A DNA stretch of 64,000 nucleotides, taken from assembly GCA_963780265.1 (NCBI GenBank), contig CAWABQ010000018.1:2558-66557 (forward strand). Reading direction: 5' to 3'. Origin of the DNA: Candidatus Bathyarchaeota archaeon. GTDB lineage: Archaea > Thermoproteota > Bathyarchaeia > 40CM-2-53-6. Under the pieces are notes generated by a model. It did no database searches. It saw nothing but the letters and a program-made list of their open reading frames with translations, and had not been told where the DNA came from. Below, in pieces: positions 40,814-63,210 of the stretch (its first letter is position 1; each line of letters starts with the position of its first letter). A program made the translations under genes and the position numbers.

Positions 40814-40994
40814 GGGGCCGTCGTCTAGAAGAGATTGCGAGCGCAACTCTCTGGACAGCTTGGTCTGGGAACACGATTCCGCCAACAGGATACCAGAGCG
40901 CAACTGCGCGCGGTGAACCTGGGGCGCTGGCGTCCCCAAGAAACAAGGGTCTTGGGGCCAGAGGTCGTGGGTTCAAATCCCACCGGCCCCACCA
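40814..40994 (+). tRNA. Intron-containing tRNA gene with genomically encoded CCA. The anticodon is unresolved (CCC/Gly in my manual fold, while the acceptor stem looks Pro-like).
   Basis: Acceptor GGGGCCG/CGGCCCC, T arm GTGGG-TTCAAAT-CCCAC, discriminator A, then CCA. The 178-nt span needs about 100 nt removed. Proposed introns are 40829-40858, about 40870-40923 and about 40937-40955. Confidence 0.7.
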
Positions 40995-41008
40995 CTTCGT
41001 GGGTTCAG
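40967..41008 (+). repeat. attL-like direct repeat (tRNA T arm through CCA plus 14 nt)
   Basis: GTGGGTTCAAATCCCACCGGCCCCACCACTTCGTGGGTTCAG. Confidence 0.75.
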
Positions 41009-41056
41009 AACATTCTTTAACCTGCTTCCGCGCTCTAGTTTAGCGCAGGTTTCCAG

Positions 41057-42493
41057 TTGCCGTACAAGGGTCTGGATAAGCTCAAGGAGAAAATTACCGA
41101 GCCGTGTGTTAAGGAGTGGGCGGACACCCTGAAGGAGGGCGATAAGACCACTCTGTATGGCGTTCTGAAGTATCTGGACTGGGTTAGGGAAAACGAGTAT
41201 TTTCAATCAGCGCAGGAGATGCTGGACGACCAGAAGCTCTGCATGCAATCGACAGACGAGGATGTGAAGTACAAGCACCTAGAAATCGTGAAGAAGTACG
41301 TGGGAGGCAAGCGATACCTTACCGGGTCGCATAATGGGGAGCTGGTCGGTGTCCGTGACCGTAGGGCAACTTTTGATTCAATAAAAAGATTCTACGAACA
41401 TTACCGTCGGAAGCTTCCCGACCTGACGAGGAGTGAAGCCAAGGAGCTGTTCGTAGCAACTGAGCTTGACAGGCGTAGGGCTAGACAGATGAAAAAACCG
41501 CTTACAGCCGAGGAAGTCCAAAGGCTGGTAATGGCTATGCCCCAGCCGTACAGGGCGATAATCCTCGTGCTCTTTCAGGGCGCTTTGGGTTTGGCGGAGT
41601 GGGATCAGTTCAACCGTGAACTTTGGCATAACATTGTGCCCGATCTCGACAAGCCAGGCCCGATTAAGATCGATGGATTGATCCGGGTGAAAACGGAGGC
41701 ACAGAAGACCGCAATGAGTGGTGAGGTGCCCCTATACTATACCTACCTTGGTCACGATGCAAAAACGATGCTGAAGGAATGGCTGAACATTAGGCAGCGC
41801 ATGAAGACCGACCTGCCCCATCTTTTTGTCGTAAGAAGCAAGGGGCCGAGAAGCAAGGGTACCTTTGTTCCTGTTACTGGTTGGCTTGTGGAGAAGAATG
41901 TGACGGATCATTCGAAGAGAATTGGATTGATTCCGTACAAGAGCGATGTCAATCGATACCGGGTTCATCCGCACAGGCTTCGAAAGCTGTTCAAGAGCCT
42001 CTGCTCAACGCACGGAGTAGACGAAGTTGTGTCAGAATGGTGTATGGGTCATAACATAGACCGGCTCGGCTACGACGAAAGCCCCGACCTAGATGAGAAA
42101 TTCTTCCGTGACGAGTACAAGAAGGTTGAACCTTCCCTGAACATAATATCGAATCCAGCGGGTGGTTCAGTGGCGGAAGAGGCGAGACGTGAGGCAAGAG
42201 CCGAATTGAATCGCCAACGTCTTCTCGTTGCCCACTACTCGGAGAAACAGATCGAGCAGATGGGTGACCTTTCACGATTCACTACAGACGAGGTTCGAGA
42301 AATGGTCAGGAAGAAACGGCAGCTTGCCAAACAGAAATCCACGGCGCTTAACGGTGGTCAACCCGACGGCAAGGCTGGTAGGCATAAGGTTGTTCCTGTT
42401 GACGAAGTTGCTAAGTGGCTTGATGACGGGTGGGTTTTCGTTCACCGGCTCTCGGATAATCAGGTGGTTATCCGGTTTCCGCCAACCGCTTAG
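41057..42493 (+). CDS. Tyrosine recombinase / integrase
   Basis: 478 aa. HPHRLRKLF (HxxR), CMGH and LGYDE (Tyr) motifs. I could not identify the box I Arg by eye. Confidence 0.8.
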   Translation: MPYKGLDKLKEKITEPCVKEWADTLKEGDKTTLYGVLKYLDWVRENEYFQSAQEMLDDQKLCMQSTDEDVKYKHLEIVKKYVGGKRYLTGSHNGELVGVRDRRATFDSIKRFYEHYRRKLPDLTRSEAKELFVATELDRRRARQMKKPLTAEEVQRLVMAMPQPYRAIILVLFQGALGLAEWDQFNRELWHNIVPDLDKPGPIKIDGLIRVKTEAQKTAMSGEVPLYYTYLGHDAKTMLKEWLNIRQRMKTDLPHLFVVRSKGPRSKGTFVPVTGWLVEKNVTDHSKRIGLIPYKSDVNRYRVHPHRLRKLFKSLCSTHGVDEVVSEWCMGHNIDRLGYDESPDLDEKFFRDEYKKVEPSLNIISNPAGGSVAEEARREARAELNRQRLLVAHYSEKQIEQMGDLSRFTTDEVREMVRKKRQLAKQKSTALNGGQPDGKAGRHKVVPVDEVAKWLDDGWVFVHRLSDNQVVIRFPPTA

Positions 42494-42662
42494 CTTTGGC
42501 GTCAAGCATTTTGCTGTAAGCGTCCATCTTTATGTCCGCCTCTATCTCGGGAAGAGTGTCCGGTTCAGCGAGAATAGCGTCACGAAGCTCGTTGTCGGCT
42601 AGGTATTTGTCCGTTCTCGCCCACGCCTTAACGCCTTCGAAGCTCACCATGTCCTCAGTCAA
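42468..42662 (-). CDS. Hypothetical small protein
   Basis: 64-aa acidic ORF, convergent with the integrase. Confidence 0.4.
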   Translation of the reverse strand: MTEDMVSFEGVKAWARTDKYLADNELRDAILAEPDTLPEIEADIKMDAYSKMLDAKAKRLAETG

Positions 42663-42726
42663 CCACGAGCGCCCAGAAAGAGAGTTATACTGTCACTTTG
42701 ATAAGGTATGCCAATGTGTTTCCAGT

Positions 42727-42966
42727 ATGTCAGAAGAGAAGCTGAGCGGTGCCGAAAAGGCAAAGGAGCTTCTGCGATCAGGTCGGCATGTCTTCCTGCA
42801 AACGGTGGGATATTCTGAGCATGAAATCCTTGGATTCGGAGATCTTGGCGAGCTATCTTCTGATAAAGTAAGCGAACTGCTTCACAGGAAAGCCTTGGAA
42901 GCGTTCGCTAGGTATTTTGACAAGGAAAATGTTCGGGTCAAGCGGCTCAATGAAGCAAATGAGTGA
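42727..42966 (+). CDS. Hypothetical small protein
   Basis: MSEEKLSGAEKAKELLRSG... The internal Met of ORF 42532-42966 was chosen to avoid overlap with the minus-strand ORF. Confidence 0.4.
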   Translation: MSEEKLSGAEKAKELLRSGRHVFLQTVGYSEHEILGFGDLGELSSDKVSELLHRKALEAFARYFDKENVRVKRLNEANE

Positions 42967-42996
42967 AACTGGTTTGCCGTCCGGTCTTCCGAGCGT

Positions 42997-43485
42997 ATGC
43001 GGCTGAAGTTAATGAAACTATTTGATCTGTTTCGCAGAGCAAAGGCTGAACGGCCCGAAAACATGGGTGCGGACATTCTAAGAATCGAAAATAGAACTCA
43101 AATGTTCTGCTACTACAATACATTGGCATTGGAAATCTTAGCAGCTACCCTTGCCAGCGTTATCGCTTTAGAAACTCTCCCATTCGTTGTCAACAATGAA
43201 CTCCGCAACAAAATGTTCCTTCCAATCAACGCTGGATGCACTCTGATACTCGTAGGCGGAGCATATCTCTTTTACCATCTGCGAAGTCTTGCGGCCAGGT
43301 GGATAAGTTTCCCTTGGGAAGATGATCGCACGAGTCCTAAAGCGTGGATAGACTATGTGGAGATAGGCGACTGGAAGACACGTCGCTCGCCCAGGGAGAT
43401 TATAACCGATACTGGCTTGATTGCCTTCATCGTTGCAGCAGCAATCATTGGCGTTTCGGCGTGGTTCTGGTTCGGATTGAAATGA
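42997..43485 (+). CDS. Membrane protein, hypothetical
   Basis: 162 aa with 3-4 TM segments. Confidence 0.5.
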   Translation: MRLKLMKLFDLFRRAKAERPENMGADILRIENRTQMFCYYNTLALEILAATLASVIALETLPFVVNNELRNKMFLPINAGCTLILVGGAYLFYHLRSLAARWISFPWEDDRTSPKAWIDYVEIGDWKTRRSPREIITDTGLIAFIVAAAIIGVSAWFWFGLK

Positions 43486-43617
43486 TCGTGTTGAGATGAA
43501 TCAGTGCGCCGCTGAATCGCTGTGGTTCTTGCATAAGTTGCCACAAGAATTTTGTTTGAGTTGTCACGAAGAATCGGACGAGTTGCCTGCTAACCAGCGT
43601 AAGGAACCTTGGAAAGT

Positions 43618-43980
43618 GGAGACAACAGCTATTCGTTTTTCTTGGTCAAACCCTTTCGGTCTGTTGTCTCTTATGACAGAGTTTTCACCACCCCCGCGGA
43701 CGCTCGCCACCCGCCGAAATCCTGACCATTATTCCGTTGTCTCCGGTTTTCGATGGAATTTGCGTGGAAATTCGCCACGAATTCCACCCTTGCTTATATC
43801 CTCGCTCGGCCAGAGCTAGTTCACGATGCGAGTGAGCCTTTCAAAGGACATCATTCGATCGTTACCGTGACAACGTGCGACGACGTGCCCGGGCGGGCTG
43901 ATTTCGACTTACTCGTTATTGTATTCGTTGACTAACGCTTTCGAGGATACACAGGACGGAGACAACGGGTGGGAGACAGC
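43618..43980. repeat. Iteron-like GGAGACAAC repeats in a mostly non-coding stretch
   Basis: GGAGACAACAG at 43618-43628 with its inverted partner at 43661-43670. CGTTGTCTCC at 43735-43744. GGAGACAACG at 43958-43967. GGAGACAGC at 43972-43980. Confidence 0.6.
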
Positions 43981-44055
43981 AATTTCGATTCGAAGAAGAA
44001 CAATCTCGTGCGGAGAGCATCTAATTCGATGAGAAATGCGGCTATTTGAAAACGC

Positions 44056-44523
44056 TTACCGACAAGTAGATTCCATGAGCATTGCGCTCATTCCGCTTCT
44101 CAGGACGTGCGTGCGCATCACGCTGGCGGATTTGGCATGTAAAGTCACTTCGAGGAACGTGCGCCTAGCCTTCATCAATTCTCGACACGCACGCTGAGTC
44201 TCAACGCTAAACATCATAGTAGATTTGTTTTGACTCAAAGTTGCAAAGTGAATCCAGGAGCAAGTCCAGATGCAGGCGCAGGCGCCGACACACGCTTCGC
44301 TTTTTGAGGTTTTGTTTTTCTTGTCCATCACGGTAGAGGTTGCTACATTTTCCTCTTTCCTACTTGATTTCCAATTACCTTTTCTGCTCTTTCTTTGCTT
44401 CGGCCTCTTTCCGCATCTGGCGCTTTTCAGAGCTGCTGGTCTCTTCCTGTCACTTCTGCTTTGGTTGTGGTCGCTTTTCTTCCCTTTTGTCTTCGCTTTT
44501 CGGCTCGCTTTGTTCGCTTTCAC
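44056..44523 (-). CDS. Highly basic Lys/Arg/Ser-rich hypothetical protein
   Basis: 155-aa ORF lying in a tract that is pyrimidine-rich on the plus strand. Coding status is doubtful. Confidence 0.3.
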   Translation of the reverse strand: MKANKASRKAKTKGKKSDHNQSRSDRKRPAALKSARCGKRPKQRKSRKGNWKSSRKEENVATSTVMDKKNKTSKSEACVGACACIWTCSWIHFATLSQNKSTMMFSVETQRACRELMKARRTFLEVTLHAKSASVMRTHVLRSGMSAMLMESTCR

Positions 44524-44615
44524 TCTTTTCTGAAGCCCGCCCTTTCTTGGCGGCGGCGGTCTAAATGTCGATTAACGATATTGAAGCGAATTGAGAGAAG
44601 AAAGAGGAGGCGAGG

Positions 44616-44831
44616 TTATTCTCGGCGTTTCGCTGGGCGAGGCCCCGTAGGGCGTTTTTCTGATCGGTACTTTTCGATTGCTCTGTCGAGAAGTTGCATA
44701 TCGTGTTGAATGGATGAGCGGTATCTCTCTATCCTCCAGAAGAGTTGGTGTATGCTTCTCATCCTGGCACCTGTACGGAGGAATACGTCCAATTTCTTCC
44801 GTTCGTTCTCGCTGAAGATTGAGCTGTTCAT
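44616..44831 (-). CDS. Small putative DNA-binding regulator
   Basis: 71 aa, divergent from the NYN gene across an operator-like repeat array. Confidence 0.45.
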   Translation of the reverse strand: MNSSIFSENERKKLDVFLRTGARMRSIHQLFWRIERYRSSIQHDMQLLDRAIEKYRSEKRPTGPRPAKRRE

Positions 44832-44861
44832 GGAGATACTTCCTTGAAGATATTCCCTGTA

Positions 44862-44914
44862 ACGGAATATTTATATCTTTATTCCGTGTATAGGAATATT
44901 CCGTGTGACGGAAT
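44862..44914. promoter_or_regulatory. Array of ACGGAAT / ATTCCGT half-sites in a divergent promoter
   Basis: ACGGAATA (44862-44869) pairs with TATTCCGT (44880-44887) around tttatat. GGAATATTCC palindrome at 44893-44902. ATTCCGT-gtg-ACGGAAT at 44898-44914. Confidence 0.6.
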
Positions 44915-45514
44915 ATGGCTCAACAATCCGTGAACGCCGAGAGTGACGAAGTAGGTAGGGGTGTCCAGCTGCTTATCGACGGAGAAAACCTCTACATGAG
45001 GACGGTTGAATACTTGAAAGCACGGAACATGCCTTCAGACACGGCAGCTGCAACCGAATTTATCCTTGCAAAAATCGGCGAACTTGTTGATTCGATTGAA
45101 GACAGATAGGTCTCCGGATCGATGTAGGATACTATTACTTGACCAGCGTCGGCGTGGACGCATTACGAAGCAGAAGAATGCTTGGTGGGATTCAAAGAAC
45201 AGTTAAGGCAGTTGGGAATCGAGATACGGTGTAATAGACAAGCGGAATGACAAGGCAGGAAACGTTGACCCTCGCTTAATCTCGGAGGCATACCGGCTCC
45301 TGCTTATTGAGAAGAAGGCGCCTTCTAACCTGGTTCTTGTGAGCGGCGACAAAGACTACGAACCCATGCTCGCAGACTACGAGAAGCAAAGCCGACAAGT
45401 AGCCATATGCTTCTATCTGCCTGGAGGCGGAGGAGCATCCATAGACCTACTGAGCATAAGAGGAACAGAATTCATCAACTTTGACAATCCGCAACAATCG
45501 TGGATAATTGCGTA
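44915..45514 (+). pseudogene. NYN (LabA-like) domain nuclease gene, heavily degraded
   Basis: N-terminal VQLLIDGENLY and C-terminal LVLVSGDKDYEPML are in the same frame. They are separated by TAG (45107) and TAA (45203), and the middle segment reads in other frames. Confidence 0.65.
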
Positions 45515-45633
45515 GCGACCTGCAGGATCTTACTGAACTTCGCCTCTTACTATCTTGGGGAGATTCATAGCAGCCTGTTGGTAGGCTTCCATCATCCGTT
45601 GAACAATAGTTACTTTCGGGGAAGAAAGTGGGC

Positions 45634-46332
45634 TCAAAAAGCCAACTTAACTACGGCTTGATCCAATTTCAGTATTTCACCGGCGCCAAGAGCAATGAGT
45701 TGGCTTTTTTTCTTCGGTTTATGAAAGTTGTTGTCCTCTGTTAGGAAGATGCCACCACCGTATCGAATGTGGCTCCACATTGCGAGTACATCACATTTTG
45801 GGTTACGCCAGTGTCGGTCTATTTCCCCACTTTTCGGGTCAAGATCCTTTTTCTTACAGAACTCTTCGTAGGAAAATTGGATCTCTGGAAAGAGTATTTC
45901 ATGTATCTTTTGCTCAAGTTCCAGCATGGGAACACTGGCAGTTACGCACCAATCAATGTAGGTAATGTCCAAGTAACATAGTGGCTTTAGAATCTCTACC
46001 TTTCCAAGCCCCACGGCAGTAATCCTGTTCCTAAACTCAGAGAAATTCGAAGCATATGTTCGATCAGGTTTTTTTTCAGAAGCGCTGATTGCGACTACTC
46101 TCAGGTTGATCCTGTGGTCGTCATGCATCTTGGCGAGTGTCCTTAGTCTACTCGCTCTGCCTTGTACCGCTTGACTCGCTATGCCTACTGCCTTTTCAAG
46201 ATCGATGATGTAATTGGTATCAAGCGTCACATTGACATTCTGAAACGGCGCATCACCCAAGCTCTTCCTAGGTGCAACTGACAGTAATTTCAGTGTTGCC
46301 TCAACCGAGTATGCGTCAGCGGTGTGACACAA
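45634..46332 (-). CDS. PIN-domain-like nuclease
   Basis: VTLDTNYIIDLEK near the N-terminus and GIFLTEDNNF near the C-terminus fit PIN acidic motifs. 232 aa. Confidence 0.5.
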   Translation of the reverse strand: MCHTADAYSVEATLKLLSVAPRKSLGDAPFQNVNVTLDTNYIIDLEKAVGIASQAVQGRASRLRTLAKMHDDHRINLRVVAISASEKKPDRTYASNFSEFRNRITAVGLGKVEILKPLCYLDITYIDWCVTASVPMLELEQKIHEILFPEIQFSYEEFCKKKDLDPKSGEIDRHWRNPKCDVLAMWSHIRYGGGIFLTEDNNFHKPKKKSQLIALGAGEILKLDQAVVKLAF

Positions 46333-46346
46333 CAGTTAACAGAGGA

Positions 46347-47348
46347 ATGAGGGAACCTATACTCTTGTGGTGGAGCTTGCCATATTGTTCAAGATGCGGA
46401 ACGGAGCTAACCGCAGGCATTAAGTTCTGCACAAATTGTGGAGCATCAACCTCAGCTCCACTTCCAACCGTGCCCCCCGTGCAGACTAAGCCTTCGCACA
46501 CGAAAAGGAATCTTGCCATCATCGTAATCTTTGTGATTCTGGTTGGAGTTGTCGCAGCCGCCTCTTCCAGGGGCCCCTCTCAGAGTGGCACCACGCAGAC
46601 CACGATTGGTGAATTACCGACAGGGAGTACAGTCACCATCGGAGAGCCGTTCATTGTGAAAGGCACGGACGATGTGCCTGTGCAGCTAAACTTCACATCA
46701 GCTTGGTTCGCAATGCGGTACGACGACACTGGAGCCGTCTCACCCAACAAGTATTTCGTGCTCGAATTCCAGATGAAGAATGTTGGAATTAGATCGACCA
46801 GTGTGTTTTCTCTTGCGTTCCTGAAGTGGGATGCGCTCGTAGATAAGGGGTACATTTACGAGTCCGACAATTACGCTGACTGGAATTTCAGCTCAGGTGT
46901 GGGGCCTGCAGAAGTTGCCACTAATAATGTGGTCTTCAATATTCTGGCGGCAACGACTCCGCTCGAAGTCAGGTACTACGATACGTGCGCAGGGAGCACT
47001 GCGGATTGTTCTCCCACTTTCACGGTGAACTTGCGTGGAATCACCATCCCTGCCAAAGAAGAGTTGACTGTTGAGTCTTCCTCCTCCTTCTGCGCCTTCC
47101 AAAATGGAACGGTAAACATGCTCAATGTCACCAACTCAGGGCTCGCTGCTGTAACCATAGCAGAGGTCTACTACGCTGACCAAATTGTCAATGCGAACCC
47201 CACACAGATCCGGCCCGGAGAAACAGTCGGCATACCCATCACCATCCCAAGCAACATTCAGGCAGGCTTCGCTCAACAGTACGAAATCAAAGTCGTCACC
47301 ACTCAAGGTAACACGTTCACAGAAAACTGCTACTACGAGGGGTCGTGA
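46347..47348 (+). CDS. Zinc-ribbon / single-TM / extracellular beta-domain protein
   Basis: YCSRCGTELTAGIKFCTNCGAS, then the TM segment LAIIVIFVILVGVVAAA, then a DUF4352-like segment. The start was moved to an internal Met. Confidence 0.6.
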   Translation: MREPILLWWSLPYCSRCGTELTAGIKFCTNCGASTSAPLPTVPPVQTKPSHTKRNLAIIVIFVILVGVVAAASSRGPSQSGTTQTTIGELPTGSTVTIGEPFIVKGTDDVPVQLNFTSAWFAMRYDDTGAVSPNKYFVLEFQMKNVGIRSTSVFSLAFLKWDALVDKGYIYESDNYADWNFSSGVGPAEVATNNVVFNILAATTPLEVRYYDTCAGSTADCSPTFTVNLRGITIPAKEELTVESSSSFCAFQNGTVNMLNVTNSGLAAVTIAEVYYADQIVNANPTQIRPGETVGIPITIPSNIQAGFAQQYEIKVVTTQGNTFTENCYYEGS

Positions 47349-47810
47349 ATGGCTGAAAGAACGCCCGAGTTCGTTCTCGGACTCGCCGGCGGGATACTGG
47401 GATTGGTGGCGGCTCCGATCATGTTTCTTGCCGGAGGAATACTCGCCGCCTTTGGTCTAAGCTCTGGCGTAACCCTAGTTGGAGTCTCGGTTGTAGGTGG
47501 GATTCTATCGATAGTTGGATTGATTGGGGCGGCGTTCGTCAAAAGTCATCCAAAAGCGTCGGGTGTCATGATGCTTCTGAGCGGTCTGCTCGGCCTGTTT
47601 GTTGTCCTAGGCTTCTGGCTTGGCGCTCTATTGCTGCTGGTGGCAGGTGTTGTAGCGCTTCTAAGGAAAGAGAAGTCTACCAAGCCTCCACCGCCGCCAC
47701 CATCGACCCAAACGAAGGTCTTCTGTACGAACTGCGGCAAACCCTTGACCTATGTTCAACAGTACCAGAAATGGTATTGTGAAAACTGCAAACAGTACGC
47801 CCCCTCCTAA
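47349..47810 (+). CDS. Multi-TM protein with a C-terminal zinc ribbon
   Basis: Gly-rich TM segments, a PPPPPP linker, then FCTNCGKPL...YCENCKQ. Confidence 0.6.
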   Translation: MAERTPEFVLGLAGGILGLVAAPIMFLAGGILAAFGLSSGVTLVGVSVVGGILSIVGLIGAAFVKSHPKASGVMMLLSGLLGLFVVLGFWLGALLLLVAGVVALLRKEKSTKPPPPPPSTQTKVFCTNCGKPLTYVQQYQKWYCENCKQYAPS

Positions 47811-47976
47811 CGAGTTTCTTTGTTCGCCGAAAAATACGTGAATCGTCTCCGAAAAACGCCTTATTTGTCTGCTCTGCGTTAACGCCTCTGATGGACAAGG
47901 AAAATAGTCCGATGCGAAGACATAAGTCAATCTTTACTCCTTATGCTGTCAGATTCTCTCTCATCTGTGAGCGTGT

Positions 47977-48861: not shown

Positions 48862-48930
48862 GTTATGTGACTAAGAGGGGATACGTGCGAATCCTTCCTG
48901 TGGTAGGAATATTACTGAACCCACGACCTA

Positions 48931-48972
48931 GTGGGTTCGTATCCCACCGGCCCCACCACTTTCGTGGGGACG
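48931..48972 (+). repeat. attR-like tRNA 3-prime fragment (DR2)
   Basis: GTGGGTTCGTATCCCACCGGCCCCACCACTTTCGTGGGGACG. It is preceded by the inverted copy GAACCCAC (48917-48924), forming an 8-bp hairpin. Confidence 0.75.
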
Positions 48973-49150
48973 ATCAGCAACCGTCGTCCATATCGTAATT
49001 TCGTGTGTCTGGGTCTAATGGTGCGCACACACAAATCACATGTGCTCGCTTCGCTCGCAGTAATCCTTTATGATCTAAACTGATGAGCGCTTCAGCGTCG
49101 CAGAAGCTATTACGTGTAAGTATTTCTAGGGCTTTCCTTGGTGGAATTGT

Positions 49151-49999: not shown

Positions 50000-50154
50000 G
50001 CCGATTCGCTTGCAGTCTTTAACTAAGTACTCTACAGTTCCTTGGGCACAAGTCCGGTAGTGTACTAATAGGCTTGTAACTTGAACCATCAATTTGTGTG
50101 TGCCCTACACCAACACACCCACACAAAAATGGAAGGATTGTACCCACAAAATTG

Positions 50155-50182: not shown

Positions 50183-50184
50183 CA

Positions 50185-53729: not shown

Positions 53730-53752
53730 AATCTAAACGTGCGTGATTCTCG

Positions 53753-54070: not shown

Positions 54071-54135
54071 ATGAGCTCAGCATGAACGAGCGAAGGAAGA
54101 TGCGCATTGTCTTGTGTACCTCCCTCGACCGATAG

Positions 54136-56962
54136 GTGTGGAGCAACTTGAGTGAGAAAGGAAAGAGAGCTTTCCTTCAAACAGTAATAATTCTCCTTAC
54201 GTTATTTTCCTCTTCCGCCATGGCGGTAAATGCGCAACTGCTTCCTACATTCGCGCTGGCCACTTCACCTTCCAGTTTGAATTTGGTGGCAGGTTCGCAA
54301 GCGAGCGTAGTTGTAACCGTTACTTCGGTGAGCGGATTCAGTGATCCGGTGCAACTGTTTTTCTCAGTCCTTCCAGTTGGTGTGACGGTTAATCTCAGCT
54401 CAAATCCTGTTACGCCGCCTGCGGGAGGTACCGTGACCACAACCGCGTCGTTCACGGTGGATTCAAGTGTGTCCGGTAACACATACTATCTCACGCTTGT
54501 TGGATCGAGTGGTTCAATTATCCACACTTATACGTTTGGCCTGCAAGTAACACCCCGGACTATCCCGCAGGACTTCGGGATCTCTGTCTCCCCGCCAGTC
54601 CTCAACATAGCACCCGGCGGACACGGATCCTCGACCGTCACCGTCTTCTCCTTCAACGGTTTCTCTTCAGGCGTATCTTTGATACATAGCGGGGGACCTT
54701 CGGGTGTGTCTTTGAGTTTCTCGCAAAGCCACTTGTTTCCGCCCTCAGGCGTTTCGAGCCCTTATGGTACATCAGCTAGTTCAGTCCTTTCGATCTCCGT
54801 TCCGTCATGGGTTGCTGTTGGGCTTTACCCTATCGCCGTGACCGGTACAAGCGACCCGTTAGGTGTCTCTCAAAGCGTAATCGTTCATTCGACCCAGTTC
54901 ACTTTGCAGGTGGTTTCACCTAAGGATTTCACTATCGCAATTGCGCCTTCGAGCCTAAGCATGCAGCCTGGCACATCTACGACCGCCACTGTAACCGTGA
55001 GCTCTTTCGGCGGATTCTCTTCTGCCGTAGAACTAACAGCTAATGGTCCCTCCGGGGTGTCTTTGAATTTCTCACCAAATCCGATGACCGAATTGCCGGG
55101 AGGGGCAGCAACTGCAACCGCGGTCATATCAGTTAGTCCGTCGGCTAGTTCGGGAACTTACCCGATGCTGATTACTGGAATCGGCGGAGGGTTAACGCAT
55201 AGCACAACCATCACAATTATCGTATCGCAAGCTGCGAGCCCAGACTTTTCCATCACCTCTTCGTCTGCTCCGATCGGAATTAATCAAGGAGCGAGCTCGG
55301 GAGGAACCGTCTATGTGTCCTCAATTAACCACTTTACGTCGCCCATCACCCTGTCCGCATCCTGGTTTGGCATATCCCCTCAAGGCCTATCCTTCACTAT
55401 TCCTGGATCTGCCACCCCGCCGGACGATGGGTCGACTCCTGCTGCCGTAACATTTTCCGCCTCGACTACGGCTCAAGTGGGAACCTATACGCTCAACGTA
55501 GTAGGGACGAGTGGTTCACTTAGCCATGCGGTGAATATCTTGATCCAGGTCATAGTATCAGGAGGCGACTTCAGCGTCTCAATTTCACCGACAACGATTA
55601 ATGTGATTCAAGGCTCACAAACAACCTCAACGGTAACATTGCAAGCTTCCGGCACATTCTCCTCTCCTGTCACTCTCACAACAACCGCCGTGAACGGATT
55701 GAGCCTTAGCTTCAATGCGAGCCCTATACTTGTGCCGTTAGCGGGAACCGCAGCCGCCCAGCTTATCGTATCAGTCGCAGGATCAACACCAACGGGAACT
55801 TACACGATACCGATTATTGCAACAAGCGGATCCCTGTCGCATTCCACAAGCTTGACGGTAACCGTGATTCGGGCTGGCTTGCAAGACTTCGCAATTGGAG
55901 TTTCGTCAGCGACGATCATGATAAATCAGGGAAGTTCAAAGACGGCAACGATATCTGTCTATTCACAAAACGCATTCAGTTCCAGCGTCTCACTGTCAGC
56001 CTCCTGGAGTAGCATAGCTCCTGACGGAGTCACGATCAACCTCGATGGACCTGTAACCCCATTGTCAAACGCAGTCGCCTCCTCGACTCTAACCATAACT
56101 ACTTCCCTCACATCCACAACGGGAAGCTACCTGCTGCAGGTCACCGGGTTCAGTGGATTGCTTATACATACAGCGAATGTGACTATTCAGGTCACGTCCT
56201 CTTCAACTACGATTACATCCACGATTACATCCAGCAGCGCGTGCGTCCACCAGCAAAAACCGGATTGTGTCTCATCGCGACTGCAACGTATGGTTCGCAG
56301 GTGGCGCCTGAGGTTCAGTTGCTCCGCAACTTCCGTGACAATTCCCTCATGAAGACCAAATCTGGTTCCAGTTTCATGTTGGTCTTTCAACGCTTGGTAC
56401 TATTCGTTCAGCCCCAACGTTGCCGCGTACTTGAACACGCACTGGGTTGAACGAACAGTGATGAAGGGCGTGCTCTATCCGCTCGTAGGAATCCTATACC
56501 TAACATCAAACCTGTTCTCAGCAACCTCCGCCTACCCTGAGCTTGCTGTGCTAATATCCGGCCTACTAGCTAGTTCTCTAATCGGCGCTTTCTACTTGGG
56601 AGTACCCTTGGGTGTGCTGAGAGCTAGAGTTCAGGCGTCTCCGCAATTGGAAGGGTCAGGGGATGCTTGAGAGAGCGCTCGCTGCCATGCTGTTCGGCGG
56701 ATTAGGAACCCTCATGTTCGGAGAGCTGCTCTCATCACAACCAGCCCTCATAATATCCACAGCCACGATAGTGCTTGTCGACGCTCTTCATATCCTCAGC
56801 AATAGTATCCAAGAAAATCTGCAGCCGACTCTAGAAACCAAATCTCGACAGAAAACCACCACATGCCAATCGGTGAGTATTAAGTCTCAGTTATACGTCG
56901 AATTTCAGCAGTACCTACGTACCCAGCAAGGAGCCAATCAATCTAGATCCCGCGCACCATGA
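54136..56962 (+). pseudogene. Repeat-rich surface/adhesin protein (about seven Ig-like repeats of about 100 aa) whose C-terminal membrane anchor is broken by three frameshifts
   Basis: The 738-aa ORF is followed by ORFs at 56241, 56431 and 56663 in other frames. Joined, they read ..GLCLIATATYGSQVAPEVQLLRNFRDN..FMLVF/NAWYYSFSPNVAAYL..PELAVLISGLLASSLIGAFYLG.., collinear with the anchor of 24450-27609. Confidence 0.7.
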
Positions 56963-57042
56963 GACTCACCACCGAAGCTTACATTTGACGACGGTCTGAA
57001 CGAAGGATAGTGGCCCAAAAGGGTTAAACTTGTAGAGGCAAC

Positions 57043-57360
57043 ATGAATGTCTCTATGCCAAGAACGATCGATGAAGCTGAAGCAAAGAAAATCGCCCTGG
57101 AGTATGTCAAGAAAGAGGAATCAGGCGCACAAGCGGAAATCAAATCAGTAGAACGGCAAGACATATGGGTATTGGAAATTTCCTGGGCGATGCAGACGGA
57201 AAAAACAAAGGGCACCCAATACGCCAATGTAACCGTTTCCGGGACAGGGGAAGTTAGAGATTACAAGAAGACACGTTTTCAAAGCGGTTCTGTATCACAA
57301 AGAATCCTTTCAAAGGTACGGGACATATTTTCGCGCAGCAAGCCCGGAGAAAAAAGCTAG
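57043..57360 (+). CDS. Hypothetical protein (PepSY-like by eye)
   Basis: 105-aa ORF. Confidence 0.4.
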   Translation: MNVSMPRTIDEAEAKKIALEYVKKEESGAQAEIKSVERQDIWVLEISWAMQTEKTKGTQYANVTVSGTGEVRDYKKTRFQSGSVSQRILSKVRDIFSRSKPGEKS

Positions 57361-57494
57361 AACCTCGAATGATTGCGACAGGAGTTAACCGTGGGTGTCC
57401 ACCACCATCGCTTAGTCTACTGTGGCAGGTCTATGATGCAAAAGAAAAAACGTACGATTAAGCTATTCGCTTAATCGTCACTTAGAAATTCAAC

Positions 57495-57644
57495 TCAAAT
57501 CGATGCCTTAGCCTTTTGCCATTTTTCGCGAACCTTTCCTACCCGCTGTTCAGACTTGCCCTTAATCACCTGGCCCATATTCAATGTCAATTTGCCTTCT
57601 AGTTCACGAAGCTTACCCTTTATCTGCTGGTTTTTACCCCTCAT
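57495..57644 (-). CDS. CsbD-like small stress protein
   Basis: Manually read 49 aa: MRGKNQQIKGKLRELEGKLTLNMGQVIKGKSEQRVGKVREKWQKAKASI. AAGGTGA lies upstream. Below the ORF-track cut-off. Confidence 0.55.
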   Translation of the reverse strand: MRGKNQQIKGKLRELEGKLTLNMGQVIKGKSEQRVGKVREKWQKAKASI

Positions 57645-57982
57645 GATTTCTTTTCACCTTCCTTACCTGATATATAGATATCAGTACACATATGTAAGCA
57701 TTGTTCTGCATAACCGGGGGTATGAATGTTCCTATGTAATCCAGCTCTTGACGCAGTCAATTACTAGAGCGTAGATGTCTGACTCATCCATGTCGCCGTT
57801 TTATTCGCTTTGTCCTAGGTGCAGGTCAACGACGCGATTCGAATCGGAAGCTTGAGAATCCGTTAGGCGCTATAGGAGCTGGAAGGAGATAGAGGCATCC
57901 ACACGTGGCCACGCGATGGCCTACAGAATTGCGGGAGATTGCAGTGGCCTCATCGGGGCACTAGGTTTTTACGTCTCCCAGT

Positions 57983-57998
57983 TTAACGATATAAATAT
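57983..57998. promoter_or_regulatory. Conserved 16-mer TTAACGATATAAATAT (copy 2), about 50 nt upstream of 58051
   Basis: Exact repeat of 53403-53418. Confidence 0.55.
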
Positions 57999-58050
57999 GT
58001 GGCGCTTCTTAGCGCAATTCAACTATGTTACGTCGTGAGGCGAATCGTTG

Positions 58051-58203
58051 ATGGACCTATTGGTTGCTATAATCGTGGTCATCGTGATTCTCTGGCTACT
58101 GGGACTCGTTGCCGGTATCGCCGGAGGTCTAATCAATATATTGCTCGTCATCGCAGTCATAGTGATAATAGTTAGACTACTTCGAGGACGTCGGATATTG
58201 TAG
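58051..58203 (+). CDS. Small hydrophobic membrane protein (lmo0937-like family by eye)
   Basis: Manually read 50 aa: MDLLVAIIVVIVILWLLGLVAGIAGGLINILLVIAVIVIIVRLLRGRRIL. Confidence 0.5.
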   Translation: MDLLVAIIVVIVILWLLGLVAGIAGGLINILLVIAVIVIIVRLLRGRRIL

Positions 58204-58217
58204 TCGGAGGTCTTGCT

Positions 58218-58436
58218 ATGAGTTATTCTAGTAATTACTGCGATCAGTGCGGCGCCAACCTGAAGGTCCAGTTCGAGTTCCGTGAGGACCAGCCCATGCT
58301 GTTCTACTGTCTTCAGTGCAAAGCCCCTAGAACCGTCGTGGCCACAGAGCATAAGCACCGAACCGACTACGCACTGGCTGATTGCCCCACATGCGGCTCA
58401 AAAATGAGCACGTACGAAGCGAACCCTGCAGGATAG
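58218..58436 (+). CDS. Zinc-ribbon protein
   Basis: 72 aa with CDQC...CLQC...CPTC. Confidence 0.5.
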   Translation: MSYSSNYCDQCGANLKVQFEFREDQPMLFYCLQCKAPRTVVATEHKHRTDYALADCPTCGSKMSTYEANPAG

Positions 58437-58474
58437 ACCAGACCTGAAAAAGAAATTCAAGGGGTGATTTCAAA

Positions 58475-58594
58475 ATGGCGAAGAAGAGTAGAGGCGGCAG
58501 AATGACTGCGGCTAAGAGGCGTGCCGCTAAGTCAGCTGGTGGACGCGGTCCCGTGAAAAAACGTCGAGCGGGTCGAAACATCATGAGGACTTAA
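58475..58594 (+). CDS. Very basic 39-aa peptide
   Basis: MAKKSRGGRMTAAKRRAAKSAGGRGPVKKRRAGRNIMRT. GGGGTGAT lies upstream. Confidence 0.35.
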   Translation: MAKKSRGGRMTAAKRRAAKSAGGRGPVKKRRAGRNIMRT

Positions 58595-58979
58595 GAGTGA
58601 AGGAGCATAGGATTATTACAGCTCCTTCCCATGGCCGGCTTTCCACAGCCCGGTAGACCAAACGGGGACTTCACAAAACCAAAATTCAGCCAAGCAGGAC
58701 TGACTCGCGTACAGTTAATCGAGGCATTTCTCTTTCATTCTAGTTGTGTGTTCGCACCTTTAGGCCTGTGCAGGAGTATTATGGTGCGGGGAGTGGGATT
58801 CGCCTCCGCTATCGCAGATCGAGCGTTTCGCTTATCAGAAATCCCCGGCACAGTACCTTCTTAGTCCGCTTCGTGAGAATTATTCAGCTAGTGCCGAATC
58901 TTACCCTCCACTCCCTGACTACTTTGTAGTTAGCGTTTATCTAGCAACTTAGTTATGATGAGTATAGTGATGCCACAGA

Positions 58980-60512
58980 ATGATCGACCATGTTTTTGTC
59001 GTAATGTTAGAGAACAGAAGCTTTGACCATATGCTTGGGTTTTCGCAAATTCAAGGCACCGATCCATCCGGAAAACTTACGAAGATCGAAGGGCTCACCG
59101 GAAAAGAAAGCAACATTTCACTTAGTGGCGACCTCGTCAATGTCTCGTCGCCAGCAGATTTCGTACTGAACTACGGTCCAGGTCATGAATTTAATGACGT
59201 GAAAGAGCAACTCTGCGGAAAAGGCCACACGTATTCTTCGCCTGCTCCGTCGCCAGGCCAAATTGATCCTAACATAAACAATAGTGGTTATGTTTCTAAC
59301 TACAGCGTATACGATCGCAAGAATCCCGGAAATATTATGAAATGTTACCTGCCAGAACAGTTGCCAATCCTGACAACGTTAGCCAAGGAATTTGCAGTGT
59401 GCGACCGCTGGTTTTCATCAATGCCCGGACCTACGTGGCCTAATCGCTTCTTCATACACGCTGCCTCCTCTGGAGGTTTGGACGACAGCCCCTCCTTCTC
59501 CCGCGAGTTCAAGTCCATACTCTATGACGGCTTCAAGTTCGACAACGGCACAATCTATGACCGGCTAGACTCTGAGGACCATGATTGGATGATTTATTGC
59601 GATGATGAATTTCCTCAAGTGCTCTCAATCGCTGGGATGCGTTCCCATTTCACTAAACACTTTACACCATTCAATCTATTCAAACAGGACGTGAGTAATC
59701 CTCTTTTCTCAAAATCTTACGTATTCATAGAGCCGGATTATCATGCCTTCACGGGTAATTTCCGAGGTGGCAATTCTCAGCATCCAATGGACGACATAAC
59801 TCGGGGGGAGAAGATGCTTAAGGAAATTTACGAAACCATACGTCAGTCTCCCCACTGGGAAAGCAGTCTACTCATCATAACCTACGACGAGCACGGCGGA
59901 TTCTATGATCACGTTGTGCCACCCGCCACTGTACATCCAGGAGATTCTATCACCGACCCGAGTAACAATCATAACAACTTTGACTTTCAACAACTCGGTG
60001 TTAGGGTGCCGACAATAATTGTCTCACCGCTAATCCCTAAGGGCACGATTGATCACACCGTTTACGACCACACTTCTGTTCTCGCTACGGTTGAGAAACT
60101 GTTCAAGCTCAGCAGCCTAACTAAACGGGACGAGAAAGCAGAAACGCTGAACCATCTACTCACGCTTAGCGCTCCTCGAACCGATACACCTGCGGTATTG
60201 CCTAATCCGGCTGACTCAGGCTTTAGCTATAAGGACGAAGACGAGAAACCAAAGAACGCTATGGTGTCGTTTCTGAGCGGCATAATGTCCGGCCGCATTT
60301 CGCTCCTGCGCCGTGAACCGGTTGATCCATCATTGCGAGGCTTCCACCATGTCGCTCTCTTAAGAGATCTTGGAGATTCACCTTCAACTGGAAAGGAGCA
60401 ACACTTTGAAAGATTCTTGAGGCATAAGAAAGTTGATGCAGTAAGATACATGCAGCAGGTCAGACAGAAGGTGACTGCCAAAGGTCACGAAATATCAGCC
60501 AAGGAATCATAA
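58980..60512 (+). CDS. Phosphoesterase-family protein (non-haemolytic phospholipase C / acid phosphatase type)
   Basis: IDHVFVVMLENRSFDHMLG, PTWPNRFF, ITYDEHGGFYDHV and YDHTSVL motifs. Confidence 0.8.
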   Translation: MIDHVFVVMLENRSFDHMLGFSQIQGTDPSGKLTKIEGLTGKESNISLSGDLVNVSSPADFVLNYGPGHEFNDVKEQLCGKGHTYSSPAPSPGQIDPNINNSGYVSNYSVYDRKNPGNIMKCYLPEQLPILTTLAKEFAVCDRWFSSMPGPTWPNRFFIHAASSGGLDDSPSFSREFKSILYDGFKFDNGTIYDRLDSEDHDWMIYCDDEFPQVLSIAGMRSHFTKHFTPFNLFKQDVSNPLFSKSYVFIEPDYHAFTGNFRGGNSQHPMDDITRGEKMLKEIYETIRQSPHWESSLLIITYDEHGGFYDHVVPPATVHPGDSITDPSNNHNNFDFQQLGVRVPTIIVSPLIPKGTIDHTVYDHTSVLATVEKLFKLSSLTKRDEKAETLNHLLTLSAPRTDTPAVLPNPADSGFSYKDEDEKPKNAMVSFLSGIMSGRISLLRREPVDPSLRGFHHVALLRDLGDSPSTGKEQHFERFLRHKKVDAVRYMQQVRQKVTAKGHEISAKES

Positions 60513-60590
60513 GAGCCTGAAGTGCCGGATGCTGAATCTTTTAAGTTCAGAGCGATGTTGGTCTGTTGAAATCACATCAACCCTGCGAAT

Positions 60591-60689
60591 GATTGCGTGC
60601 TATCTTACTCGGGAAGCAGAAACGGCACAAAATGGGGCGCTTCATAAGTAGCCCCACCGTGAATTTCAATTGTCCCACCGGCTCCACGA
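60591..60689 (+). repeat. Repeat R-B, ending in a degenerate tRNA-end copy (TCCCACCGGCTCCACGA at 60673-60689)
   Basis: Roughly three-quarters identical by eye to R-A over about 100 nt (shared GGAAGCAGAAACG, AAATGGGGCG and TCCCACCGG blocks). Confidence 0.65.
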
Positions 60690-61033
60690 TTTGGCATGCT
60701 TTGCGCTTGCCACTAATTGGATAGATAGAGGACGTGACGTGAATGCATGATTCCGGCAACGTGTTATTGGCTCTCTCGAAAAACCTGCGGTCTTCGAAGT
60801 TCCATCTTTCTAAGAAAGACACTCAAGCTGAATGGGCTTAGAGGCCGAAGAGCTTTTCATGTGAATCGTCTCCTCCGCTTGGGCATAGCAAGTATTGGGT
60901 CACTTTTTATAGTGGTCTTGCCTGTTGCGAAGGTAGTATACTGGAGATCTTACCTGCGTGGATGATGGGAGGGCCTTAGGCCTGTGCCGATTGTCGCGGC
61001 GAGTATTATCTTTCGTATAACTATAGAACAGGG

Positions 61034-61201
61034 ATGGTGGAAAACGAAATGGGTTATGAGAATAGACGTTCTGGTGCCCCGAGGCAAATGACGAAAGTCA
61101 AATGCTCCGACTGCGGTGCAGACACGGAAGTACCGTTTGTGCCGACGACGGGCAGACCAGTCTACTGTAGAGACTGCTTCCAGAAGCACAGAAGGTATTA
61201 G
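61034..61201 (+). CDS. CxxC-x17-CxxC zinc-binding small protein
   Basis: Manually read 55 aa: ...KCSDCGADTEVPFVPTTGRPVYCRDCFQKHRRY. Confidence 0.55.
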   Translation: MVENEMGYENRRSGAPRQMTKVKCSDCGADTEVPFVPTTGRPVYCRDCFQKHRRY

Positions 61202-61516
61202 GCAAACAGCCTAGAACCGATACTGACCAGAATTTCTTCATTTTATTTTTCTTCAAATATACTTCCTGTAGGGTCCCATGTTATAGATGTGTCACGGTTA
61301 GGTTTACCAAGCATCTGTATCGGAAGCGGCCGATTCACATGTTGGATAGACGCGGGTTTCTCTCTAACTGAACTAATCCTTCTAGAGCATGGACACTGCA
61401 AACAAATCACCCTGACGAGAAAGGAATTAGCAACGAGCGCAGATACTTCATAGCAAGGGCATTCTCAAGATGTAGCCCCGTAGGCTCAATGGTGCTGCGC
61501 ACAAAAGCCAGATGCT

Positions 61517-62635
61517 TCAAACGGTCCCCCAAGTGTGCTCGCAGTTGCAATAACTTTTGCCAAAGTCATCTTTCCCTACCTTGCGAGTGCCGCTTTTGAA
61601 TTCGAAATTCGTGACCCTTGCAGGGTACTCGTTGTAGAATATTCCGTGCCAAATTGGTCCTATGAGGGGTTGCGATATGTCCCAGCAGCACCTTGCGTAG
61701 GTTGCCATCTCTATGTTGAGCTCGCATTCATCGGACCATGCGTTCACACTGAATATCGGTAGGTCATTCTCGTAACGTTTAGTTATTCTAACATCTTTCA
61801 TGGAATATTCCTTCCCCTCCGTAGGGTCGTAGAAGTTGAAAGTCTTTGACACCATCTTCTCCCCCCAGTCCATCAGGCTCTTGTGCGAAATCGAGCGTCT
61901 GAGCATTGGCATTCCGAGATGCGGCAGGAAGTACTGCAGGTAAGCGCCATTATCCCACTGTACTGTACCCCAGTACCAGCAAGGTGTTATCGAGGATATC
62001 CGAACTTTCTGGAAATAGGATCTGCCCTTTACGGGAGTCTCGGCATCGCCTACTCGGATCTTTCCCGAAGACGTGAGTGCCCTGTATTTCAGCATGGAAT
62101 ACCCCATGTTTCTGAAGAAATTCTTTCCTGTCGGTATCAGTTCTGCCATCGGATCTTTCCATCGCTGCATCGACAGTTCGATTCCGACCTCCTCGCTGTC
62201 TATATCCATCCAGAAATCCGCAGGGCTCCCACCAAAGGAATAGACACCGTCATCGCTTTCCATTCTCATTCGTGCAGAGTTTTCATCCCACCCAGTTTCC
62301 GTCTTGCCGTGGTCGAGGATGAAGGGGTCATGCATCTTGTTTCCGTCATAATACCAAGAGGCGACGATTGATTCGAAAGCGGCACGATTTTCCTAGATCT
62401 CGATTGGGATTTTTGGCTCCCAGTAAGAATCGTTCACGCGAACCTTTCTGCAGTTCCTGGTGCCCCAAAGAACCATGAGCTGCCTGGGGAATTCTGGGTT
62501 GTCTGGGTTTTCGAAAAAATGTATCCACCACCACCAGTGCCAAGTGCGGTTCTTGAGCATGTTTTCAGGGTAAATCTTCCATATATCGCTGAAGACTTTA
62601 TGCATCCGTCCTCGCAAATCAGATGACGATTGCAT
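61517..62635 (-). pseudogene. AttH/CrtC-like (lipocalin-fold hydratase family, tentative) gene with an in-frame TAG at 62393-62395
   Basis: ORFs 62393-62635 and 61517-62335 are in the same frame and read through as ..EPKIPIEI*ENRAAFESIVASWYYDGNKMHDPF.. A WHWWWWIHFF motif is present. Confidence 0.5.
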
Positions 62636-62687
62636 TAGGCATTTTCCTCTCGCACTTCCTCTTGCGCACTTTGTGAATGATATTTCA

Positions 62688-63050
62688 CTATTTTTCCAAT
62701 CTGTATAGCACGTAAGTAGCTGCAGTCATCCCTAAGAAAAAGTACAAAACTGCAATTTCTATTGGCAAGGTTCCACCTATCATATAAAACGGCGAACTAT
62801 AGTAACCCCACAATCGATTTCCAGTTCCATAAAGCTCCCACACCGTATCTGCGACAAAACCAATAGCACCAAGTTCTAAGATTACAGGATTTCTGAATTT
62901 AACAAGTCCAGCTATTCCGATAACACCAAACAAGACCATTAGAACGGTACTCGTCCAGACATTCTTGCCCAATTGACTTGCAAGAAAAGTAGAAGGTATG
63001 ATGACCAAGATTATGATCGAAACCATTGGAACGCTATTTTGGAGTTTCAT
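62688..63050 (-). CDS. Lycopene-cyclase-domain-like small membrane protein (tentative)
   Basis: The internal Met gives 120 aa with 3-4 TM segments. GNRLWGYYSSPFYMIGGTLPIEIAVLYFFLG resembles the W-x-Y...P-x-E-E...FF cyclase-domain motif. Confidence 0.4.
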   Translation of the reverse strand: MKLQNSVPMVSIIILVIIPSTFLASQLGKNVWTSTVLMVLFGVIGIAGLVKFRNPVILELGAIGFVADTVWELYGTGNRLWGYYSSPFYMIGGTLPIEIAVLYFFLGMTAATYVLYRLEK

Positions 63051-63191
63051 AATCTGCCCTGTAATGAGTCGCTGATTTAAGTTGCACCGGCTACTGTGCA
63101 CGAAAGTTGTTAGATCAATTTTCACGATAACGATTGGCAACGGGACATATGGTCCAGAGTGTCTGGTACCAATAGACCCAACACACGCCAA

Positions 63192-63210
63192 GAATTCATG
63201 GGTTCAAATC
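63192..63210 (+). repeat. Possible outermost tRNA-derived remnant
   Basis: GAATTCATGGGTTCAAATC equals the R-A flanks (GAATTC ... CATGGGTTCAA) with the internal 29 nt absent. It also matches the tRNA T arm TGGGTTCAAATC. Confidence 0.35.

Follow-up and report, generated by a model that had tools for sequence, protein, structure and literature searches.

In a 64,000-nucleotide stretch of a Candidatus Bathyarchaeota genome (contig CAWABQ010000018.1; the whole stretch is called the window here), the 3' end of a single tRNA-Pro gene recurs several times downstream of the gene itself, which raises the question of how this region came to be divided by copies of one tRNA end. Very probably, the 3' exon of the gene is an attachment-site (attB) hot spot at which repeated integration has built a layered, partly decayed array. 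The evidence lies in repeats at the segment junctions, in occupied and in empty or alternative states of the same site among relatives, in the horizontal spread of one type of element (E1), in the tyrosine-recombinase fold of the protein that E1 encodes, and in a crossover that falls within the repeated core. The original prediction had already proposed repeated integration at this tRNA; it proved largely right for positions 40995-60690 and wrong in assigning all elements to a single family, in counting five independent repeat copies, and in adding a fifth segment. Our comparisons drew on about ten related Bathyarchaeia contigs, among them L002 (JBAVCK010000141.1), L003 (CAVSBL010000002.1), and L013 (JBEKQF010000001.1); the closest public loci are Bathyarchaeia metagenome-assembled genomes from peat and soil.

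The target tRNA gene and the copies of its 3' end

40814-40994, plus strand: tRNA-Pro(GGG) gene, the attB target, with an encoded CCA end (bulge-helix-bulge motif search, then ARAGORN on the spliced sequence)
40829-40858, 40867-40886, 40897-40917, and 40933-40963, plus strand: introns 1 to 4 of the tRNA-Pro gene (bulge-helix-bulge search)
40977-40994, plus strand: att core copy 1, 18 nucleotides (nt) (ATCCCACCGGCCCCACCA), attL, inside the 3' exon (repeat alignment; comparison of the window with L013)
48941-48958, plus strand: att core copy 2, attR of E1 and left junction of segment 2 (repeat alignment)

ARAGORN and Rfam (at gathering thresholds) reported zero tRNAs in the unspliced 64-kb window, because four introns interrupt the gene. 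The introns, of 30, 20, 21, and 31 nt, lie at sites 15/16, 20b/21, 30/31, and 45/46 and separate five exons of 15, 8, 10, 15, and 31 nt; all four bulge-helix-bulge motifs have a 4-bp central helix, 3-nt bulges, and inner helices of 4-8 bp. The gene starts with GGGGCCG and ends with CGGCCCCACCA, and its predicted splicing gives a 79-nt product that ARAGORN calls tRNA-Pro(ggg). The four introns are conserved at seven loci (the window and six orthologues), and all seven yield an identical mature tRNA with the same ARAGORN call; variation among them is confined to introns 1, 3, and 4 or to variable-loop position 44, and intron 2 is invariant. In four syntenic relatives the stretch is conserved from its first base to its last, and similarity ends right after the CCA. 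A three-intron model (one 54-nt intron, anticodon CCC, G32, and a variable position 37) was rejected for its poorer anticodon loop, and other splice points of that model (k=4, k=6) place the variable columns in the anticodon or at position 37.

The multi-intron tRNA genes of Thermoproteales and Thaumarchaeota also carry non-canonical introns bounded by bulge-helix-bulge motifs at several positions of one gene, but no more than three of them, which is the stated maximum per archaeal tRNA gene (PMC4033280, PMC8450103). With its four predicted introns the tRNA-Pro gene exceeds this maximum, and a full-text literature search, judged from titles and abstracts, found no four-intron archaeal tRNA. 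A contest between the disruption of tRNA genes and integrating elements has been proposed (Randau and Soll 2008, as cited in PMC4033280). After fragmentation by four introns, the 31-nt 3' exon could be the only stretch long enough to serve as an att site; if so, the locus would be a live example of that contest.

The last 18 nt of the tRNA recur in the same orientation at 48941, 50269, and 60672, and alignment with shuffle controls bore out every recurrence that had been listed from the sequence. The first copy matches 40967-40997 at 29 of 31 positions over 48931-48961 and includes an exact 21-mer, ATCCCACCGGCCCCACCACTT; this direct repeat, at 40977-40997 and 48941-48961, flanks E1. Positions 50270-50286 are an exact 17-mer of the tRNA end, 60673-60689 match it at 15 of 17 positions, 50155-50185 form a degenerate copy (24/31), and a T-arm-like motif, TCATGGGTTCA, is present near 63.2 kb (63196-63206). 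None of 100 shuffles reached the observed two 17-mer matches (up to two mismatches allowed), and the 11-nt motif TCRTGGGTTCA occurs five times in the window, four of them at att junctions, against 0.09 expected. The two inverted copies of the T stem that had been pointed out are also present: GAACCCAC at 48917-48924 lies opposite GTGGGTTC at 48931-38, and GTACCCAC at 50140-47 lies opposite GTGGGTAC at 50155-62. Pairs of GTGGGTTC at 17.9 kb stand inside apparent coding sequence and were judged to be chance.

There is almost no probability left for the view that the repeats arose by chance, or stand for separate tRNA or pseudo-tRNA genes, in 22 kb of ordinary conserved synteny. The report of zero tRNAs in the window by the tRNA finders is the sole point in its favor, and the shuffle controls contradict it. 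Every att copy consists of the tRNA 3' end only and is preceded by element-specific DNA with family-specific arms that are conserved across genomes. Rather than 22 kb of conserved synteny without an empty site, the relatives have different content between the copies, with breakpoints at the core, by which this view is already refuted.

The breakpoints also locate the crossover. Between the window and L013, the sequence left of the core differs at attR and the sequence right of the core differs at attL; since both borders are shared on one side of the core and unrelated on the other, the crossover lies inside the 18-nt core. The T loop of the right arm of E1 (TTCGTAT) differs from that of the tRNA (TTCAAAT) and therefore lies on the element side, consistent with a crossover in the core.

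The idea that elements integrated repeatedly and site-specifically at one tRNA attB, and so left a layered array, is upheld by L002 and L003, by L013-L020, by relatives with E1-type elements, and by L029. Upstream synteny with L001-L004 reaches the CCA and then breaks, with different DNA after the tRNA in each. For example, flank DNA directly follows the tRNA in L002, and in L003, its 95%-identical sister, that flank begins 5.5 kb downstream, after a third att copy, with a second att between. The two flanks are 95% identical starting with the very first base behind the core, which makes L002 an empty site with respect to the two stacked segments in L003. Eight same-species contigs (L013-L020), 98.6% identical to the window upstream, hold an att-bounded 5.0-kb segment in place of E1, which encodes small proteins, a GAF/PAS sensor kinase of 1,220 amino acids (aa), and a response regulator; they are collinear with the window again from 48920 to 60953.

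Element E1 and its integrase

40995-48958, plus strand: element E1, 7,964 bp, integrative, with an intact integrase and other genes without recognisable function (exact 21-bp direct repeat at its flanks)
40997-41007, plus strand: left-arm (P') motif of E1, TCGTGGGTTCA, a direct T-stem/loop copy (conserved before the integrase gene in L006, L026, L010, and L028)
41057-42493, plus strand: integrase, 478 aa, tyrosine-recombinase fold, divergent Bathyarchaeia-centred family (Pfam, PHROG, AlphaFold2/Foldseek)
48877-48940, plus strand: right arm of E1 (P arm, type 1b), with the inverted repeat GAACCCAC-GACCTA-GTGGGTTC and the variant T loop TTCGTAT (arm comparison)

In the mechanism that we propose, the tRNA-Pro(GGG) 3' exon would be an attB, a hot spot where integrative elements of Bathyarchaeia recombine. 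An integrase of the tyrosine-recombinase fold, encoded by the element, would join the 18-nt core of a circular element to the identical tRNA end, the element would supply a replacement 3' end, so that the tRNA stays whole, and the displaced core copy would remain at the far end of the element. The resulting order would be the tRNA, E1 (7,964 bp), segment 2 (1,328 bp), segment 3 (10,403 bp), and the flank from about 60.8 kb. E1 would then be the most recent insertion in the array, and segments 2 and 3 would be older, passed down within the species, and altered by deletions and rearrangements.

E1 is apparently an active element. Its attP can be reconstructed as GAACCCAC-GACCTA-GTGGGTTC-GT-ATCCCACCGGCCCCACCA-CTTC-GTGGGTTCA, with the predicted junction sequence ...GAACCCACGACCTAGTGGGTTCGTATCCCACCGGCCCCACCACTTCGTGGGTTCAGAAC..., and its excision would join the tRNA to segment 2 in the predicted sequence ...TTCAAATCCCACCGGCCCCACCACTTTCGTGGGGACG.... 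The repeated GTGGGTTC motif, which stands in both orientations and in both arms, is a candidate binding site of the integrase. E1 is absent from the same-species strains L013-L020, and a sister element of 7,943 bp with the same left motif (CTTYGTGGGTTCAGAA) is found in L006/L007. The two elements are 80-95% identical (82% in the DNA of the integrase region), whereas the flanking housekeeping genes are only 66% identical; elements so much more alike than their host backbones indicate horizontal spread of the E1 type. Over 82 nt, the right arm of E1 and the right end of the L006/L007 element share 95% identity, and the arm of L027 is similar. As three independent E1-type elements share a right arm with the inverted T stem, the suggestion that this inverted copy is an attP-arm signature holds for E1.

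Integrase homologues directly follow the same tRNA at 86% (L006/L007), 54% (L028), and 51% (L010/L011) identity, each with different cargo. In L026 and L027, a 7.2-kb element that is 99.95% the same in both lies behind different upstream segments and adjoins a downstream copy of the att core, not the tRNA itself; its integrase is 78% identical to that of E1. Besides the integrase, E1 carries genes for small proteins with PHROG matches only to families of unknown function. PHROGs and NCBIfam returned zero replication, capsid, or conjugation genes in E1 and segment 3, and no virion genes were found in E1. In the window a NYN-like gene is split over three frames; its L007 counterpart is intact. 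A metagenome scan with a narrow integrase alignment, aimed at integrase relatives and not at the attP junction, yielded three short contigs.

It had been claimed that only the first segment keeps an integrase, and this stands: the open reading frame (ORF) 41057-42493 is full length against 18 homologues, and segments 2 and 3 are without one. Two in-frame stop codons lie between the end of the att core (40994) and the integrase start at 41057, so integration leaves the integrase gene unsplit. The family, which has been little studied, holds 209 cluster representatives at E<=1e-30. The window protein matches the integrase family phrog_1 (E 7.6e-8), and 12 of 19 family members match PF00589 at E<=0.1, the best at 7.5e-7. 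With an AlphaFold2 model (mean pLDDT 82.9), Foldseek matched the PDB structures 2a3v (IntI), 4a8e/5hxy (XerA), Cre, lambda Int, and the catalytic domain of SSV1 Int at probabilities of 0.93-1.0 (1.0 for IntI, XerA, Cre, and lambda Int) and target-normalised TM-scores of 0.37-0.69; the best fold match was VchIntIA. The model has the two-domain tyrosine-recombinase fold, with a C-terminal catalytic domain like those of Cre, XerA, and lambda Int. Residues K212, H304, H306, R309 (H304/H306-x-x-R309), H332, Y339, and Y354 are invariant across 19 integrase sequences, and the 478-aa protein is probably an active recombining enzyme.

An hhalign comparison of the family with the canonical integrase of L001 was uninformative, and exact-protein look-ups of the window integrase, phosphoesterase, and methyltransferase gave no record. 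Residues 173-182 of the integrase form the motif FQGALGLAEW, in which the family has a glycine at the position that aligns with the first catalytic arginine of XerA, and five family members match a model of the Ndc10 N-terminal domain. Distant members at about 40% identity (L023 1-110, L024 1-235) directly follow other tRNA genes, namely a tRNA-Lys(CUU)-like 3' half and an intron-containing tRNA followed by a TATCACATGGGTTCGATAGG arm; tRNA 3' ends appear to be the target of the whole integrase family. The L010 element (12302-21416, also in L011) encodes Mrr, CoiA nuclease, Metallophos, SMC/AAA, NurA-like, DUF87, methyltransferase, and BsaWI-like restriction enzyme proteins, which looks like a defence or DNA-repair gene set; no right-hand att copy of this element was found within 11.5 kb.

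Integrase-less segments and the right border

48959-50287, plus strand: segment 2, 1,328 bp, one gene, without integrase (att copies at its ends)
49151-49999: leucine carboxyl methyltransferase (LCM)-family gene, 282 aa (Pfam LCM 2.5e-46)
50152-50287, plus strand: composite type-2 right arm, 136 nt (76% identical to 60558-60690 and 78% to L001 15400-15540)
50288-60690, plus strand: segment 3, 10,403 bp, an old mosaic without integrase (left arm, comparison with L029, same-species collinearity)
50660-50941: gene A, 93 aa, conserved across Bathyarchaeia
51078-51256: fragment B, in segment 3
54136-56352: surface-type protein gene, 738 aa, in the hypervariable middle of segment 3
58980-60512: phosphoesterase gene, 510 aa (equal length, 510 aa, in L013)
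60558-60690, plus strand: second composite type-2 arm at the right end of the array, with att core copy 4 (60672-60689; 15/17 over 60673-60689) (arm alignment)
60828-61549, no strand assigned: conserved flank right of the array (87% identical to L029 15089-16131, just right of the last L029 att)
60980-61198: treble-clef zinc-finger gene, 73 aa (Pfam PF23477 2.4e-19)
63171-63210, plus strand: isolated right-arm-like fragment ACCCA...TCATGGGTTCAAATC (no att core in the alignment; motif expected 0.09 times in the window)

Segment 2 is shared with same-species strains at about 97% identity, and its methyltransferase is equal in length to the L013 gene. It ends in a composite arm made up of a degenerate tRNA-3'-like copy with an inverted T stem (50140-50182), a conserved spacer of about 85 nt (GGAAGCAGAAACGGC.CAAAATGGGGCG...), and att core copy 3 (50269-50286). 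The fossil-like tRNA-3' copy stands 105 nt upstream of the real core, and derived substitutions (CCCATCGACCCCACGA) are common to all copies of the arm. The degenerate copy at 50155-50182 had been counted as a remnant in its own right; it is present, but as 50155-85 belongs to a composite arm with a paralogue at 60558-60690 and a homologue in L001, it is the left part of that 136-nt arm and not a separate integration, and the count of five independent copies falls with it. A supposed origin of the segments in several elements of one family also fails, since at least three unrelated arm families occur at the site and relatives hold a second, SSV-type integrase family. Many pseudogenes had been claimed as well, yet clear breakage is limited to the NYN-like gene of E1 and the large surface-protein gene of segment 3, and the methyltransferase and phosphoesterase are of the same length as in a sister strain.

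Integrase remnants at the site are found in relatives. In L029, a segment next to the counterpart of segment 3 contains a truncated remnant of the E1 integrase family, in which decay is seen directly. L001 encodes a canonical (PF00589) 345-aa integrase at 19555-20592 with the att inside its N-terminal coding region, where the tRNA end reads WVQIPPAPP in the integrase frame, and Int(C)-like remnants lie after the tRNA in L001 (10952-11113) and at both att copies in L006/L007 (17856-18140, 19502-19627). The L001-type integrase thus shows, at the tRNA-Pro site of these relatives, the SSV-type ("suicidal") split-gene pattern. In the window, tblastn (E<=0.01) detected neither an Int(C) nor an Int(N) remnant of that integrase. 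The integrase-less segments of the window are probably decayed elements.

A rather unlikely alternative is that the short integrase-less segments are cassette-like modules (one to three ordinary genes between a short left arm and a right arm that ends in the core) that E1-type integrases move in trans, with the tRNA end acting like an integron attachment site in a gene-exchange platform and not a graveyard. Integrons consist of IntI, attI, and attC cassettes, and archaeal integrons have been reported. The segments resemble them as short, mostly co-oriented modules without integrase, each ending in a recombination site near a tyrosine recombinase. Many such segments of 1.3-5 kb in six genomes have apparently complete genes, mostly on the tRNA strand, including an LCM methyltransferase, a GAF/PAS kinase with response regulator, an aromatic amino-acid lyase, and a CitMHS transporter. 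One 136-nt arm follows three unrelated genes (in L001 it stands behind the citrate-transporter gene), a left arm of about 30 nt precedes unrelated DNA in the window, L013, and L003, with similarity ending after about 30 nt, and the first slot varies between same-species strains. However, the comparisons turned up no cassette that occupies two different array positions or is shared by two unrelated genomes, the genes do not all point the same way, and the attachment site here is a tRNA end. Neither a structured, folded attC-like site nor an IntI-type integrase with its specific features was demonstrated (the Foldseek comparison concerns the general recombinase fold only). The truncated integrase of L029 and the Int(C)-like split remnants of L001 and L006/L007 are what decay and gene capture predict and point to decay of whole elements.

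Segment 3 is likewise best read as an old integrated layer. It starts with a left arm of about 30 nt (tatcatgggttcaatagcccgattttgaca; tatcatgggttcaatagcc...) that also opens att-bounded segments in L013, L003, and L029, and it is collinear with same-species strains at 89-99% identity; its middle has 89-91% strain identity and many frameshifting indels. The alternative that only E1, and perhaps segment 2, was inserted, and that segment 3 is chromosomal DNA whose composite arm was duplicated by local rearrangement, has less to recommend it than the cassette model and is improbable. It would fit the high conservation of gene A (49 homologues at 73-99% identity, in at least four genomic contexts among Bathyarchaeia), its housekeeping contexts in L021 and L030, the rearrangement of blocks A, B, and C between the window and L002/L003 (where gene A and fragment B adjoin the tRNA or an att copy, their order changed and block C inverted), and the paralogy of the arms 50152-50287 and 60558-60690. 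Against it, the left arm is shared with the starts of other att-bounded segments, and in L029 an att copy is followed by a segment with the same left arm, gene A, and fragment B, which two further att copies close and after which comes the window's flank; the left end of that segment is collinear with segment 3.

The L029 flank also bears on the right border. As the sequence right of its last att matches 60828-61549, the array of the window most likely ends at 60690, with the flank starting near 60.8 kb, and the fifth segment of 2.5 kb (60.7-63.2 kb) that had been proposed is not supported, 60828-61549 being conserved flank. A match of 60700-60721 to the start of block B (19/22), considered as a scar of an older flank, has no extension in the alignment and is possibly chance.

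Several results weigh against an array of integrated elements across the whole of 40995-60690. Segments 2 and 3 contain no integrase fragment, and no empty state was found for them within the species. In L021 and L030 no att copy lies near gene A and fragment B, and this, with their different order next to the tRNA in L002/L003, suggests that some of segment 3 may be chromosomal DNA that was captured or rearranged. The right end is not fully fixed: L029 synteny breaks again near 61.55 kb, and synteny of the ZnuA-like gene failed as a border marker, as L012 shares only that gene. For E1, no circular or excised form came to light; the predicted attP junction matched nothing in IMG/VR, and its integrase has no relatives there. 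The integrase matches PF00589 (Phage_integrase) at E=0.0018 and 18.5 bits, below the gathering cut-off of 27.1. Its residue G178, a glycine, aligns to the canonical first catalytic arginine in a weak alignment to XerA (HMMER E=0.95), the sole match of a PDB sequence-profile search and the one sequence alignment obtained. The integrase may have a non-canonical active site.

Within segment 3, we also observed that the surface-protein region (54136-56962) encodes 738 aa with trailing fragments in the window and 901 aa in L013. Frameshifting indels are numerous at 56.2-56.9 kb, and this surface-protein region is the most divergent part of the shared island (about 90% against 98.6% in the core). 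A 15-nt tandem repeat array at 52276-52515, in the minus-strand ORF 52209-52562, differs by 46 nt from L013.

Relation to known systems

Integration at tRNA 3' ends, intact as opposed to split integrases, and tandem integration are established for archaea (PMC8371274), and the locus is a further case of this established kind, in which integrative elements stand in tandem at a tRNA gene, from a lineage whose elements of this sort have hardly been described. E1 resembles the classical non-suicidal pNOB8/SNJ2/PYG1-type elements (PMC8371274): it has integrated at a tRNA 3' end and restored the tRNA, direct repeats stand at both ends, and an intact integrase gene of tyrosine-recombinase fold lies next to attL with the att outside its ORF. 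It differs from them in its Bathyarchaeia host and in its integrase: at 478 aa, with an additional domain at the C-terminus, the protein is longer, it does not reach the PF00589 cut-off, and its residue aligned to the first catalytic arginine is a glycine. The same source sorts archaeal integrases into 17 families and mentions Bathyarchaeia once, for topoisomerase IB-like proteins (PMC8371274).

SSV-type ("suicidal") integrases have been linked to "gene capture" in archaeal chromosomes (She et al. 2001, as cited in PMC8371274), and the locus shares with that model elements that are caught behind tRNA genes and decay there, so that att repeats and captured genes remain. In E1, by contrast, the att lies outside the integrase ORF, the gene is whole, and the window has no split-integrase remnant. 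Tandem genomic-island arrays were reportedly described at bacterial tRNA and tmRNA genes by K. P. Williams in 2002-2003, in which successive integrations displace 3' fragments downstream and the intact integrase lies nearest the tRNA gene. The window has the same features, with 3'-end copies in one orientation and alternative occupancy whose breakpoints fall at the repeat (L002/L003, the window and L013-L020, L026/L027), but in Archaea, with other integrase families and a target gene with four introns. The arms carry short inverted repeats of the form CCCAC-N6-GTGGG.

Bathyarchaeia are among the most abundant archaea of soil and sediment, and their mobile elements are little described. The locus provides a defined attB (18 nt of tRNA-Pro), reconstructed arms, and an 8-kb element with a sister in a distant host. 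Because Pfam thresholds mostly miss the integrase family, standard annotation will overlook such islands, and the tRNA too. At this tRNA-Pro site, strains of one species differ in sensory and metabolic genes.

Upstream of the array, the gene for a CCA-adding enzyme is split at 39180 (ORFs 38594-39238 and 39157-40023) by a single-base deletion relative to L013 (476 aa); either the assembly is wrong here or the frameshift is real, in a gene that is normally essential.

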